Virus record (IMG/VR): IMGVR_UViG_3300028920_000006
Coordinates: 7,843-71,842 of that record
From: a virus
Length of the DNA stretch: 64,000 nt
Strand: one strand, 5' to 3'
The position numbers and the translations under genes are program-made. Numbering within the stretch: the first letter of the stretch is position 1; each line of letters begins with the position of its first letter. Below, piece by piece: positions 412 through 43,873 of the stretch. The notes under the pieces are model-generated. The model saw nothing but the letters and a program-made list of their open reading frames with translations, was not told the origin of the DNA and did not search any database.

Positions 412-1509
412 TTATGTGTATTTCCTCTTCCTGTTCAGGCGCAAACCCTCTTCCACTCTATCCCACGCCTTTTGGGCTACCTTGCGCAAATCCACTTCCA
501 AACCATCTTCTTCAATTGCCCTTATCAGTTTGTCCCGTTTGTATTCCATGTCCAGTTCTTTAGCCTTTATCCTACCGGACGTTTTCTTCCAATACTTGTT
601 ACTGTTTTCACTGGTCAGCCAATCTATTATGGAACCAACGTCATCTATCCCGTAGTCATAGTATATGGGGAAGTCTACACTACGAGCCTTGCCAGTGACC
701 CTATTCTTGGTCACATTAACACGACATTGCACGCCTATGATTGGACCACCTTTTGTTTTCCTAAGCTTCCCCACAATAGCCAACCACAATTCGTGAGTTT
801 CGTTGTGTTCCAGGGACTTTCCACCTGTCCTTCTGTACCGAGGCTGGAAAGGCATGTTGGTCAGATTCTCTCTAACCTGTGATACTATCAACAGCAGACC
901 ATTCACTTCTGCTACCCCTTGTATCATCAGACGCAGCATCTCACTGAAACCCCGTACCTTTTCTGTCTTCCATGATCCCTTTCCCTTTTCGGTCTTACCA
1001 GCATTCACAGACTTTGCGCGTTTTACCATGCGTTCTATTTCTTCATCACTGGTGAGACCATCAAAGGAATCCTCAACCCACACAAACGGCTCCTCTGCTT
1101 CTATCCTGTTCCACACACCAACTTGAAAATCATTGATGGTTTTGCTGTGTTCTACCTCCAACCTCTTGGCTAGCTTCGCCCCAAAAAGATATCTGATGTC
1201 ATATTCGATGGCAGCTTCAACATCATCATGGATAAGCCTGTAGTCTGCGAAACGTTTTTTGTGAGCCGCTTCTGCCAGACAAGAGTGAGCCAGAAAGGAC
1301 TTCCCTGTCCCTTTGTCTCCGATAAGGTTTACCATCTTACCAAGCATGAACCCACCGCTCCACATATCACTCAAGGCTAGGTTCAGCATGGTAGATCCCG
1401 TAGGGAGCATCATAGATGGTTTAAGTATAGATTCCTTGATAGGTTTCTCTGCGTGCTCTACTATCTGATCAACCACGGACTTTTTCTTCTTGGTGCGCTT
1501 GCGTTTCAT
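412..1509 (-). CDS. recA: RecA/UvsX-like recombinase
   Basis: PTGSTMLNLAL, Walker A GDKGTGKS, Walker B VWVEDS, SQVR, TGGKSL, KNRV, YGID motifs. Confidence 0.9.
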   Translation of the reverse strand: MKRKRTKKKKSVVDQIVEHAEKPIKESILKPSMMLPTGSTMLNLALSDMWSGGFMLGKMVNLIGDKGTGKSFLAHSCLAEAAHKKRFADYRLIHDDVEAAIEYDIRYLFGAKLAKRLEVEHSKTINDFQVGVWNRIEAEEPFVWVEDSFDGLTSDEEIERMVKRAKSVNAGKTEKGKGSWKTEKVRGFSEMLRLMIQGVAEVNGLLLIVSQVRENLTNMPFQPRYRRTGGKSLEHNETHELWLAIVGKLRKTKGGPIIGVQCRVNVTKNRVTGKARSVDFPIYYDYGIDDVGSIIDWLTSENSNKYWKKTSGRIKAKELDMEYKRDKLIRAIEEDGLEVDLRKVAQKAWDRVEEGLRLNRKRKYT

Positions 1510-1527
1510 ATGTATTCCTGAGTTAGT

Positions 1528-1621
1528 GCCGGGGTGACGGCAAGGGCAACCGTACTCTTCGCAACTGGCGAACGAAAAGCCTCCATATCGGGGGGATCCA
1601 ATTCCCCGGGAGCACCCCAGC
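1528..1621 (-). ncRNA. candidate structured cis-acting RNA between SSB and recA
   Basis: 9-bp closing stem (1621-1613 with 1536-1528, one G-U) enclosing three short hairpins. Confidence 0.35.
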
Positions 1622-1632
1622 GGCGAATACAG

Positions 1633-2658
1633 TTACCTCTTTTTCTTCTTACCCTTCTTGGTGTTCTTCTTTTTCCTTGGCTTCTTCACCTCTTCTTCTT
1701 CTTCTTCTTCGTCCTCATCATCGTCGTCGTCATCGTCATCGTCGTCGTCATCGTCATCGTCTACTTCGTCGTCATCGTCGTCGTCACTATCACCGTCATC
1801 GTCGTCGTCATCGTCGTCGTCATCGTCCTCGTCCTCGTCCTCGTCCTCGTCCTCTTCCTCGTCGTCCTCATCCTCCTCTTCTTCGTCCTCGTCGGAGTCG
1901 TCTTCGTCCTCGTCCTCGTCCTCGTCCTCGTCATCGTCAACGCCTCCGCGCAGAGCCTTCTCCAGTTCTCCTTCCTTGGGTACTATCAACAGCGTGTCGA
2001 GGTCAAGTGCTTCTCCCAGCACTTCTTCATCCAAGTCCTCTCTGTCCTTGAACTTTATCTGCCACGCCTCCAAGAACTCGCGCTTATCCTTACCCTTACC
2101 AGCAGACCTCTTCTCGAAGGATACCACAAGCGTCTTACCACCTTCCACGTCCGCGAACGTTACCAGTTCATCATTGTCAGCAATATACTTCTTGAGCAGC
2201 TTGCCGAACAGGTGGTAACTGTAATCCCACAGCAGCATTTCACCTTTCTTGTTCTGTATGTTGAACAACTGCCGATCCTTGGCCCTGAGCTTCCTGGCCA
2301 ATTCTTCACTGCCCTTGGGATCATTGTATACCTTTTCCTGGTAGTCACAGACGGGACATGACTTGCCAACAGAGCGAGGACACAAGAACGCCTTGCCTCC
2401 CGGACCGATGTTGTAATGCACCCCGATAGGTCTATAGTAAAAGAGCTTCCCCTTCTTTGCAAGAGGATGCTTCTTACTGGATACCGTGTATGGTATGATT
2501 GTGAGAATGTTCTTACCTTCTTTGGGCTTGAACAGTTCCACTTCATCATCCAACTTGAGATAGGGTTTGCCCCCTCCCATGTTTGCCACGTCATCCCTGA
2601 CAGTGTCCGCCATGGATTCGTGCCTACGTTTCTTACTCTTACTATTCTTCTTTGCCAT
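1633..2658 (-). CDS. T4 gp32-like single-stranded DNA-binding protein with very long acidic tail
   Basis: H..CPRSVGKSCPVC Zn site, DVEGGKTL motif, about 80-residue D/E tract, position next to recA and UvsY-like gene. Confidence 0.75.
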   Translation of the reverse strand: MAKKNSKSKKRRHESMADTVRDDVANMGGGKPYLKLDDEVELFKPKEGKNILTIIPYTVSSKKHPLAKKGKLFYYRPIGVHYNIGPGGKAFLCPRSVGKSCPVCDYQEKVYNDPKGSEELARKLRAKDRQLFNIQNKKGEMLLWDYSYHLFGKLLKKYIADNDELVTFADVEGGKTLVVSFEKRSAGKGKDKREFLEAWQIKFKDREDLDEEVLGEALDLDTLLIVPKEGELEKALRGGVDDDEDEDEDEDEDDSDEDEEEEDEDDEEEDEDEDEDEDDDDDDDDDDDGDSDDDDDDEVDDDDDDDDDDDDDDDEDEEEEEEEVKKPRKKKNTKKGKKKKR

Positions 2659-42181: not shown

Positions 42182-42214
42182 GCCTGACGGCAACACAAAG
42201 AAAGGAAAAGAAGA

Positions 42215-43246
42215 ATGCCTAAGATTCGACTTCCTAAGAGACTGAACGTGAATGCCGGCGAAGTCCAGGCGATCGTTGATGCCATCTACAAGAAGCAAGC
42301 GTATGGTGACGCTGCTCACCGTCTGCTTGCGAGTGGGATGAATGTCAATGCTTTGCGTACCAACGACACTCTCCGCAAGGATGAGTGGAAGCATTATGAC
42401 ACCGCTCTGCTCAAGGTGGCACAGGAAAGGTTGATAGGTGTGGCTGACCTCATGGGTCGTGGTCTCACGTATAGTATCTCCAATGGTCTTGGTAAGACTG
42501 TGCTGGAATACGAGGACGTGTCCCAGATTGAAGCCGCGCAGATGTCTATGGACGCCGTTACTCGGGGCCGCAATGACCGGGTGGAGTTCAGCATCAACTA
42601 CCTGCCTCTGCCGATTGTCCATTACGATTTCCAGATCAACGCGAGGGTGCTCGCCGCATCCCGTACGACTGGTGAATCGTTGGACACAACGATGGCCGAG
42701 CTCGCAGCGCGGATGGTGTCTGAGAAGCTGGAGGAACTCCTGTTCACAGGGTCCAGCGACTACACGTTCGGCGGTGGGACGATCTATGGTTACACGGATC
42801 AACCCAATCGGAATACCGGTTCGCTCTCGGCGAACTGGGATGACTCAGCCGCGACCGGCAATACCATGCTGGACGATGTGCTGGCGATGAAGCAGGCGTC
42901 TATTGACGCGAAACACTACGGCCCGTGGATGTTGTACATCCCGACCAACTTCGAGACCGCAATCGAAGACGACTTCAAGGCCAATAGCGACAAGTCCATA
43001 ACGTCGCGGCTCAATGAAGTTCGTGGGTTGATCGACATCAAGGTCGCCGACAAGCTGACGGCCGATAACGTCGTACTCGTTCAGATGAGTAGTGACGTGG
43101 TTCGTTGGGTGGAAGGTCTGGCGATGCAGACCGTAGAGTGGCAGACCGAAGGTAACATGATCTACCACTTCAAGGTCATGACCATAGGTGTCCCGCAGAT
43201 TCGGGCAGATCAGGAAGGCAATAGTGGTCTTGTCCACTATAGCTAA
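42215..43246 (+). CDS. major capsid protein (HK97 fold, encapsulin/linocin M18-like)
   Basis: 343 aa; LPLPIVH.DF.I..R.L.ASR, YGPW.LY; position in head module. Confidence 0.85.
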   Translation: MPKIRLPKRLNVNAGEVQAIVDAIYKKQAYGDAAHRLLASGMNVNALRTNDTLRKDEWKHYDTALLKVAQERLIGVADLMGRGLTYSISNGLGKTVLEYEDVSQIEAAQMSMDAVTRGRNDRVEFSINYLPLPIVHYDFQINARVLAASRTTGESLDTTMAELAARMVSEKLEELLFTGSSDYTFGGGTIYGYTDQPNRNTGSLSANWDDSAATGNTMLDDVLAMKQASIDAKHYGPWMLYIPTNFETAIEDDFKANSDKSITSRLNEVRGLIDIKVADKLTADNVVLVQMSSDVVRWVEGLAMQTVEWQTEGNMIYHFKVMTIGVPQIRADQEGNSGLVHYS

Positions 43247-43309
43247 TAGTCTGTGAGCAGGTAAGGACTAACCAAGTCCTATCCTGTTCCTAACCAAGGA
43301 GAAAACAAA

Positions 43310-43873
43310 ATGGCAACACGCACAAGAAGAGCGAGAGCAAAGAAGAAAAAGAAGAGCAATAAACCTTTTATCCCCAAATACAGATTTCGTGTGATCAGTG
43401 GGAGGCATTACGAAAGGGTTGATGTACCCGGTAAGAAGAAGCGAATACAAGAGGTATTCACAGCCGGGATGGTATTTGAGTCTTTCCGGAGACTGGATAA
43501 GATATTTGGAAATAAACTCAGGTATCTTGGACTGTCCAAGGAAGAACCCGAAGTAGATGAGGTCGAAGAAGATGCCCCCGACACTGAGGAAGAGCGCGTG
43601 GATAGCGACGAGGACGAAGACGAAGACGCGGAAGAAGAAGAGGACGAGGAAGAAGACAACGACGATGACGAAGTAGATGGGGCTGACGACGAAGAAGACG
43701 ACGATGACGAAGACTCAAACGTTGTTCAGTACCGTATGAAACATCGAGGTGGTGGTCGATGGTGGGTAGTCCCATGCAACACAGTCACAGGTGATATTGT
43801 GGGCGAACCTGTCCACGACGGTTATCTCACCAGAGAAGCCGCTATCAAACTGCTTGAAGATATGGAAAGCTAA
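43310..43873 (+). CDS. basic N-terminus plus acidic tract protein after capsid gene
   Basis: MATRTRRAR..., about 55-residue D/E-rich tract; AAGGAG RBS. Confidence 0.7.
   Translation: MATRTRRARAKKKKKSNKPFIPKYRFRVISGRHYERVDVPGKKKRIQEVFTAGMVFESFRRLDKIFGNKLRYLGLSKEEPEVDEVEEDAPDTEEERVDSDEDEDEDAEEEEDEEEDNDDDEVDGADDEEDDDDEDSNVVQYRMKHRGGGRWWVVPCNTVTGDIVGEPVHDGYLTREAAIKLLEDMES

Follow-up and report, generated by a model that had tools for sequence, protein, structure and literature searches.

Short basic N-terminal tags on DNA-handling proteins of a tailed phage and their likeness to the LAST motif of T4 gp32

Short basic peptides directly following the initiator Met were analysed in a tailed phage from IMG/VR virus record IMGVR_UViG_3300028920_000006, a 71,842-bp single contig of which bases 7843-71842 form the stretch studied here (the window, 64,000 nucleotides; positions below are window positions, with the strand in brackets). 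These N-terminal tags are made of two to six Lys or Arg residues followed by Ser or Thr, with RT[K/R] as their core. They are best read as disordered electrostatic arms similar to the LAST motif of bacteriophage T4 gp32, which would bind nucleic acid or acidic protein tails and hold DNA-handling proteins there; the probability of this reading is put at roughly 0.55. An earlier note on the window had listed basic termini on many unrelated proteins and had proposed a shared address or partition tag, or a kinase or protease motif. All of the listed termini were found in the sequence, some with corrections. The helicase gene starts GTG-ATG, the sigma-like gene TTG-ATG and the TerS gene with GTG at 33634. 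The open reading frame (ORF) ending at 12784 reads ...IKKRKRTKRNSS*, the start at 31608 lies within a longer open frame, and the 'nested nuclease' is the ORF 3995-4795 (-).

Genes encoding at least 60 amino acids were called using a simple, crude caller written for this work that takes Shine-Dalgarno (SD) sites into account, applied identically to the phage and to control loci. Control counts were restricted to loci of at least 8 kb; of the 55 genome loci 21 were shorter and were dropped, as were 48 of the 80 metagenome loci. At least five Lys or Arg in residues 2-12 were found in 15 of the 94 phage proteins, with about 2.6 expected from internal 11-residue windows of the same proteins. The same count gave 0/27, 2/18, 1/29, 1/70, 0/69 and 1/79 in six control loci, 18/858 in 34 loci around portal homologs from prokaryote assemblies (Fisher p=6.6e-8 against the phage) and 33/696 in 32 metagenome loci around RecA homologs. 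Lys was enriched 3.65-fold and Arg 3.30-fold in the tags, against 1.15-1.39-fold and 0.82-0.99-fold in untagged and control N-termini, and ordinary start bias therefore does not explain the tags. The enrichment over the usual start bias was thus confirmed.

Order as well as composition was enriched. RT[KR] occurred in the first 15 residues of 10/94 proteins (0.77 expected at the internal rate), and shuffling of each N-terminus gave 2.4±1.4, with a maximum of 8 over 500 shuffles. Ser or Thr followed 14 of 37 N-terminal basic runs and 26 of 356 internal ones (p=1.6e-6); in other phage loci the same preference was faint (55/313 N-terminal vs 436/3,827 internal).

Tags were unevenly distributed over the genome, with 14/52 early-strand genes, 3/21 packaging and head genes and 0/21 glycosylation and tail genes carrying one. 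Among proteins with an annotated function, 9/17 DNA-handling proteins were tagged and 0/15 others (p=0.001; 8/17 and p=0.003 when TerL was left out). A distant phage on a 137-kb metagenome contig (L148, GC 39%, RecA 41% identical) had tags on 9/34 genes of its recombination module (2926-17403 of that contig), among them those encoding a protein similar to single-stranded DNA (ssDNA)-binding protein (SSB), RecA, endonuclease VII, Rad50-like and Mre11-like proteins and a NUMOD3 nuclease.

Selection acts on the peptide, because the Arg codons of the tags are mixed and because the portal tag was kept through synonymous Arg changes. The 48 tag Arg codons comprised 25 AGR and 23 CGN (44% to 56% elsewhere in the genome). 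When the portal tag MAQAIKRIRTRH was compared with MARSIKRVRTRH in the best homolog (L004, 82% identical, on a 4.5-kb contig; next best 52%), Arg was retained through AGA to CGG, AGG to CGG and AGA to AGG changes. On these codon comparisons the signal lies mainly at the peptide level, with the tags under amino-acid-level selection.

The alternative of an origin in translation or at the nucleotide level would leave the peptide functionless: A-rich, T-poor codons would keep the ribosome-binding region unstructured, or the runs would grow by slippage in a purine-rich, repeat-prone genome. Several observations agree with it, and some of them weigh against the electrostatic-arm reading. The predicted minimum free energy between -20 and +45 averaged -5.9 kcal/mol in the 17 tagged genes and -10.6 kcal/mol in the 77 untagged ones (p=2.8e-4); tags leave the mRNA around the start less structured, and a translational benefit could contribute. 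Tag codons were 46.5% A and 8.7% T, the coding strand was 56.9% purine (mean of 53.4% in 36 other loci), and the genome is full of tandem repeats, so that some Lys runs may be neutral low-complexity growth. The poly-acidic tracts described below are 3-nt and 6-nt tandem repeats, and the C-terminal tails demonstrably derive from SD sequences. Further reservations concern the data themselves. Gene calls and start choices rest on the crude caller, the TerL tag hangs on an uncertain start, and the sorting by function was the author's own, with seven tagged proteins of no known function, so that the restriction to DNA-handling proteins covers the annotated subset. Several DNA enzymes of the phage were untagged, namely the DNA polymerase, UDG-exonuclease, clamp loader, primase, SNF2 helicase, Rad50-like and Mre11-like proteins. 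Against a nucleotide origin stand the 3.3-fold excess of Arg in tags compared with 0.82-0.99-fold at usual starts, the CGN half of the tag Arg codons and the conservation of the portal tag through Arg codon changes. The ordered RT[KR] lay above all 500 shuffles, and Ser or Thr was 5 times commoner after N-terminal than after internal basic runs. Tagging was also bimodal, untagged genes showing only the usual slight A excess (30.9% vs 28.9%), and among annotated proteins tags occurred on DNA-handling ones only. An origin in translation or at the nucleotide level is regarded as unlikely.

The tagged genes of the minus strand begin with the RecA/UvsX-like recombinase (412-1509), which carries MKRKRTKKKK at 1480-1509; its best homologs, 73% identical (on a 1.8-kb contig) and 62% identical, start MKRKRSRKG and MKRTRNN. 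The radical-SAM protein (10636-12081) has MKRKRKRS at 12058-12081, with GGAG about 7 nt upstream of its ATG, and the DNA methyltransferase (12078-12866) has the lineage-specific extension (V GRSD)MTRKRTKYSSSRKGSGQKGTL at 12789-12866. MAKVKRKRI at 16965-16991 opens the DnaB-like helicase (15453-16991; PHROG 19), and MKRRRTK at 17324-17344, with AGGAGG 4 nt upstream, opens a replication-initiator-like protein (16991-17344) in which the PHROG 9474 match begins at residue 11. A 168-residue protein of no assigned function (19306-19812) starts MAKRRARGK (19786-19812). The sigma-factor-like protein (22043-22564) starts MRRTRF (22547-22564) and matches PHROG 351 from residue 10 (E=7e-10). Upstream of it, a 73-residue protein (22564-22785) carries VKRTRKSVKKGKKKKQK at 22735-22785 behind AAGGAGG at 5 nt, and a 219-residue protein of no assigned function (22782-23441) carries MKRARTRKPPKRHRTR at 23394-23441 behind AAGGAG at 5 nt. 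A Lys/Ala/Ser-rich ORF of 105 residues without a family match (31291-31608) starts MATRTKKASNK (31576-31608).

On the plus strand, TerS (33634-34275) carries VKRTRRSSKKKAK at 33634-33672, with GGAGG 8 nt upstream. The portal protein (36863-38374; family PF06381) carries its tag at 36863-36898, and the protein encoded after the capsid gene (43310-43873, 187 residues, no assigned function, AAGGAG 8 nt upstream) combines the tag MATRTRRARAKKKKK with a poly-Asp/Glu tract. TerL (34406-36163) has a possible tag, MTTTRRIRTRRCGKSKRGFKRK, at 34406-34471; its start at 34406 is weak, since GAGG lies only 2 nt away, and an alternative ATG is present at 34562. Three TerL relatives start 15-20 residues ahead of the conserved core, but L001 has a long MRTAREK... 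leader.

An SD core of at least 4 nt was found 4-8 nt upstream of 14/18 tagged starts. In the methylase gene, the ATG at 12851 is without an SD site and the GTG at 12866 has GGAG, so the start is probably the GTG five codons upstream of the ATG. True starts downstream of the tags were considered as a general explanation and set aside, being countered by the SD sites, by homolog N-termini and by the conserved PYY..GDC segment of the methylase; this explanation is still possible for TerL. Public gene calls cut off the tag in two cases (database proteins P0395 and P0001). The methylase is started 50 residues downstream in the database, which loses the PYY..GDC..DPPY region, and the database call of a relative's portal begins at an internal Met, which loses the tag. 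Automatic start calling conceals these tags.

The tags begin at residue 2-7 and Pfam or PHROG domain matches at residue 10-44. In structure models the tag regions were low-confidence coil, with a predicted local distance difference test (pLDDT) score of 44-58 for methylase residues 1-20 and 50-59 for SSB residues 1-30. The idea that the termini are appendages outside the conserved folds was borne out to this extent; at RecA (both ends), SSB, portal and helicase, the ends belong to the whole family.

A Sec or Tat signal peptide was rejected, as 0/17 tagged proteins had a hydrophobic 12-residue window in the first 45 residues (top mean Kyte-Doolittle value 1.57). A cleavable tag was likewise rejected: no common residue pair, such as Gly-Gly, follows the tags, and no protease family was matched among the 79 window proteins, although remote homologs are possible.

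The tag pattern resembles the consensus sites of basophilic kinases. R-x-R-T or K-R-T could thus be a modification or processing site, targeted by a basophilic Ser/Thr kinase, an Arg-modifying enzyme or a dibasic-site protease, in keeping with the Thr or Ser after 14/37 N-terminal basic runs. Searches of the 79 window proteins matched no Pfam kinase or protease family and no ADP-ribosyltransferase, many tags are without Ser or Thr (helicase, 19306, 13958), and the gp32 LAST motif accounts for hydroxyl residues in the absence of modification. The kinase or protease motif of the earlier note has no support here, and a modification site in general has a very slim chance of being correct. A virion-loading label, by which basic tags would let proteins ride into the capsid on packaged DNA, could explain why tags sit on the portal, on TerS, possibly on TerL and on the product of the gene next after that of the capsid protein. 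No reason is known why early replication enzymes, which make up most of the tagged proteins, should be packaged, no Gly-Gly or other cleavage fence follows the tags, and no prohead protease was identified among the window proteins; this explanation is very unlikely.

Homologs were compared to separate family traits from lineage-specific additions. At least four Lys or Arg were present in residues 2-12 of 116/150 SSB representatives and 57/120 listed RecA homologs, and in residues 2-14 of 49/120 portal homologs. All three full-length helicase relatives (38-43% identical) had a basic start (MAKWKKRKVD, MKRKRVLVD and MAKRNLKVR). By these comparisons, basic N-termini of SSB, RecA, portal and helicase are old family-wide traits. 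Members of the combined RecA and portal sets most often began MRTK, MPRT, MKRT, MART and MRRT, and the Arg of RT[KR] was at residue 2-3 in 37/48 cases. Changes were counted on quick FastTree trees from which the first 45 residues had been excluded. RT[KR] was carried by 29/119 rows of the RecA tree, where at least 22 changes were needed, and by 20/120 rows of the portal tree, where at least 14 were needed, and its distribution on both was nearly as scattered as shuffled labels. Therefore the motif was gained and lost many times.

The methylase differs from these families. None of its 120 listed homologs (59-77% identical) had at least four Lys or Arg in residues 2-12, and most start M(K)PYY. 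In the phage protein 53 residues precede DPPY, vs 32-33 in most listed homologs, and no alternative start codon retains the conserved PYY..GDC segment. By this comparison the methylase tag is a demonstrable lineage-specific graft of 21 residues. Cultured-phage homologs of TerS aligned only from query residue 38-47 onwards (8 listed of 46 records). The suggestion that alignment would reveal lineage-specific extensions thus held for the methylase and failed for RecA, SSB, portal and helicase. As far as sequence comparison can tell, SSB, RecA, portal and helicase families have long had the trait, with frequent gains and losses, whereas in this lineage it has spread to further proteins and is unusually widespread.

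The SSB (1633-2658, -) starts MAKKNSKSKKRRHES, followed by a Zn-finger core, a poly-Asp/Glu tract at residues 231-332 (nt 1663-1968) and the basic C-terminal tail KKPRKKKNTKKGKKKKR. Its Pfam gp32 match (E=7e-4, 20.1 bits) was below the 26.8 cut-off. A profile search of the PDB gave four matches, all gp32; phmmer with the SSB core against the PDB gave no match. The AlphaFold2 model had a pLDDT of 90.4, and the top six Foldseek matches were all gp32 (1gpc at E=8e-5; template modelling scores of 0.50-0.57). Residues C93, C101 and C104 are invariant. In core fold, Zn-binding Cys cluster, basic N-terminus and acidic C-terminus the protein agrees with the gp32 family, of which it is a distant member by sequence.

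Poly-Asp/Glu tracts of 60-120 residues occur in three phage proteins, each with a basic N-terminus: the SSB, a 358-residue protein of no assigned function (13958-15034, -) and protein 43310-43873 (+). The second has Lys-rich N- and C-termini and a 120-residue tract (TRF period 6, 45 copies, 14331-14606); in the third the tract covers residues 81-140 (nt 43550-43729, +). The tracts are 3-nt, 6-nt or 18-nt tandem repeats, that of the SSB having a 6-nt unit in 38 copies. Such tracts were found in 1/1,262 genes of loci L001-L070 of at least 8 kb, in 12/696 genes near RecA homologs and in 38/150 SSB-family representatives. The idea that they are unique to this phage was dropped, as they are a recurring trait of the SSB family.

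In the electrostatic-arm reading, each tag would let its protein bind non-specifically to the DNA or ssDNA phosphate backbone and could also bind acidic, DNA-mimicking protein surfaces, by analogy with the gp32 LAST motif. Phage DNA would thereby become enriched in the recombinase, helicase, initiator, methylase, sigma-like factor, terminase and portal. The SSB could be a further gathering point for tagged proteins, since its poly-acidic tail of 100 residues is the counterpart of the C-domain with which gp32 binds its partners. A bolder extension is an electrostatic 'hub and tag' system, in which the three poly-Asp/Glu proteins would serve as DNA mimics. A dozen proteins of replication, transcription and packaging would dock on their tracts, and on DNA, through LAST-like K/R-T tags, and all would condense together into a membrane-less replication and packaging factory. 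This extension is speculative and improbable at present. Were it correct, the tag would be a portable short linear motif, and any protein could be enrolled by receiving it, as the methylase would have been. The many gains and losses of the motif among RecA and portal families of uncultured phages would then reflect one system.

A dedicated address tag would require a specific receptor or compartment, such as a replication and packaging factory, that recognises (K/R)RxRT and gathers the tagged proteins. It would account for one motif on many unrelated proteins of two modules, for the graft onto the methylase, for repeated evolution in two families and for a second phage (L148) with many tagged recombination proteins. 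No candidate receptor was found, tag length and position vary, and tags in relatives are limited to few families. The sequences drift and keep charge and a hydroxyl only, as in the RecA relatives (MKRKRTKKKK, MKRKRSRKG and MKRTRNN), which is typical of electrostatic binding and not of lock-and-key recognition. A dedicated address system is thus quite unlikely, and nothing in the analysis points to the receptor or compartment that the earlier note had in mind. An address to DNA or the nucleoid survives in a weak sense, as non-specific DNA affinity of the kind known for the phi29 terminal protein (PMC4974454), and not as a dedicated system.

Basic C-termini were also enriched, with at least five Lys or Arg in the last 11 residues of 14/94 proteins vs 29/858 in portal-homolog loci (p=2.3e-5). 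Ten of the 14 end -8 to +12 nt from the next start and have AGGAGG-type hexamers in their last codons. Most C-terminal 'tags' are thus in-frame readings of the SD site of a coupled downstream gene (AGG AGG = Arg-Arg), or conserved family tails. C-terminal tags as first listed are therefore present and enriched, and are largely a by-product of translational coupling. The C-terminus KKRRRTK* of protein 22782-23441 (22782-22805, -; AGA AGG AGG ACA AAG TGA) holds the SD site of the next gene (GTG at 22785), and the CGG AGG of the PAPS-reductase-like C-terminus RRVRTRRSRQ* (33605-33637, +; CGG AGG TCC AGA CAG TGA) holds the GGAGG of TerS. The RecA C-terminus ...LRLNRKRKYT* (412-444, -) is a conserved family motif and no appended tag: the alignment consensus ends LKLNRKxKY, and 113/120 listed homologs have at least four Lys or Arg in the last 11 residues. 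A basic C-tail was found in 58/150 SSB representatives, and four relatives retain the one on the protein whose gene lies upstream of the SSB gene.

The remaining listed C-terminus, ...IKKRKRTKRNSS* of ORF 12784-13143 (12784-12825, -), has no family match and overlaps the methylase start in another frame. The two genes overlap by 68-83 nt, and both encode K/R/T-rich peptides in adjacent stretches. Two small ORFs, 2642-2785 (-, 47 residues) and 39677-39853 (+, 58 residues), start on strong SD sites that form part of the codons for basic C-termini in the preceding genes. The former resembles a membrane peptide, and both, if real, account for two more basic C-termini.

The first 122 bases of the contig recur as its last 122 bases, and because of this terminal repeat the phage genome is taken as complete, at about 71.7 kb and with circular permutation or terminal redundancy. 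The window covers the greater part of this siphovirus-like genome. Replication, recombination and transcription genes lie on the minus strand up to about 32.6 kb. They encode the UvsX/RecA-like recombinase, an intein-bearing clamp loader, a split family-A polymerase, a UDG-exonuclease, the radical-SAM protein, the DNA methylase, the DnaB-like helicase, the initiator-like protein, a primase, an SNF2 helicase and the sigma-like factor. The plus strand encodes the PAPS-reductase-like protein, TerS, TerL, portal, MuF, an HK97-type capsid protein, a glycosylation island and siphovirus tail genes; a tape measure is also present. Strong SD sites lead the genes of this phage, and no tRNA genes were found in the genome.

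A blastn search of the phage DNA against 50,697 phage records gave no match. TerL was at most 38% identical in the best-listed of 1,111 cultured-phage records, all of which were below 60%, and the lineage appears from these searches to be almost unsampled. Portal relatives were scattered over metagenome-assembled genome bins of many phyla. No viral-contig relatives were found for the radical-SAM protein or protein 22782-23441, and Atlas look-ups for proteins 43310-43873 and 22782-23441 gave no usable match.

Several further features were recorded. A glycosylation and sulfation island (43873-54452, +) lies between head and tail genes and encodes a 1,224-residue protein with a GT29 sialyltransferase-like domain, a radical-SAM enzyme, a SAM methyltransferase, a DXD glycosyltransferase (Gly_transf_sug / TcdA_TcdB-type domain), two sulfotransferase-like proteins and a UDP-glucose/GDP-mannose dehydrogenase. 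A 21-nt unit is repeated in tandem at 9590-10024 (20.7 copies) and, as an identical unit, at 28181-28342 (7.7 copies); the repeats encode QTASGT(K/R) heptads in two separate minus-strand ORFs, with a weak match to the Pfam 'grass antifreeze beta roll'. Between the divergent modules, positions of about 29300-32600 are without convincing genes, contain dense 12-, 24-, 30- and 42-nt tandem repeats (30446-30825) and may be an origin or regulatory region. The clamp-loader gene (3327-5426, -) encodes an intein (PF14890, residues 132-499). Wholly within this gene and in a different frame lies the 266-residue ORF 3995-4795 (-), with its own SD site (GGAGG, 6 nt upstream), the basic start MTVRRRT and a DUF559/Vsr-like endonuclease domain (E=7e-14); its sequence suggests a free-standing nuclease gene within DNA that codes for an intein. 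Outside the window, bases 1-7842 of the contig (locus L155) encode a 164-residue protein of no assigned function that starts MTSKHKRTKISRRK and, without tags, a split SbcC/Rad50-like ATPase, an Mre11-like phosphoesterase and a DnaJ-domain protein.

Short basic arms on single phage proteins are textbook knowledge (the gp32 LAST motif, the RKR of the phi29 connector and the phi29 terminal protein). The scale seen here appears to be new, with the motif on about a sixth of one phage's proteins; the demonstrable, recent methylase graft, the repeated gain and loss of RT[KR] in the RecA-like and portal families and a distant second phage with tagged recombination proteins also look new. Full-text literature searches, judged by their listings and abstracts and by passages of PMC4974454, PMC12424627, PMC5892887 and PMC12424635, gave no paper on LAST-like tags across the proteome of a phage. 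If the tags are a portable 'go to DNA/SSB' motif, it would be a simple rule for gathering small phage replisomes and packaging motors in the absence of compartments, and the tags would be a ready-made, testable peptide tool.

Among known systems, the homeodomain N-terminal arm, with the consensus (K/R)R-x-R-T-x-F/Y, places Arg3 and Arg5 in the DNA minor groove and doubles as a nuclear localisation signal (NLS). It nearly matches (K/R)R-x-R-T and is likewise disordered and ahead of a folded domain, but it is eukaryotic and belongs to one fold only. The likeness to NLSs pointed out in the earlier note is real in composition, most tags having the K-K/R-x-K/R pattern. The host is expected to be prokaryotic, without importins, from the SD-led genes, the sigma-like factor, TerS, TerL, portal and the tape measure. 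Phage terminal proteins carry NLS-like signals that can act as eukaryotic NLSs, and that of phi29 has a basic N-domain which gives it non-specific DNA binding and a position at the nucleoid (PMC4974454). That domain is helical, of about 73 residues and on one protein, in contrast to the 6-20-residue coils on many proteins here; no terminal protein or protein-primed polymerase was found in a family search of the window proteins. In the phi29 connector gp10, the N-terminal RKR at residues 3-5 binds pRNA (PMC12084888). The portal here shares a protruding basic N-terminus with it, but the connector is of another portal family than PF06381, and no pRNA is known in this phage.

The closest comparison is with T4 gp32. 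Its LAST motif, (Lys/Arg)3(Ser/Thr)2, is KRKST at residues 3-7, is essential for cooperativity and is nearly identical to KRKTS of the ssDNA-binding trough, and docking on an acidic DNA-mimicking surface has been proposed (PMC12424627). The internal copy of the motif thus serves in ssDNA binding and the N-terminal copy in binding to an acidic protein surface. The acidic C-domain of gp32 binds other replication proteins (PMC12424635). Like LAST, the tags are basic runs with hydroxyl residues behind them, adjoin the initiator Met and lie apart from the folded core of a phage DNA-metabolism protein, and the gp32-fold SSB of this phage also has a basic N-terminus and an acidic C-terminal tail. They differ in that LAST is described for gp32 alone and the tags here are on 10-15 unrelated proteins, and in that the commonest form here is RT[KR] or (K/R)n-T, vs KRKST; the SSB N-terminus KKNSKSKKRRHES is a looser version. 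A LAST-type pattern of about three Lys or Arg followed by Ser or Thr was not found in the helicase (KRKRI) or in protein 19306 (KRRA). It was found in KRKRT, KRKRKRS, RKRT, KRRRT, KRTRKS and KRTRRSS, and the tags, starting at residue 2-7 and lying before the domain matches, have the LAST-type position at the extreme N-terminus, outside the folded core.

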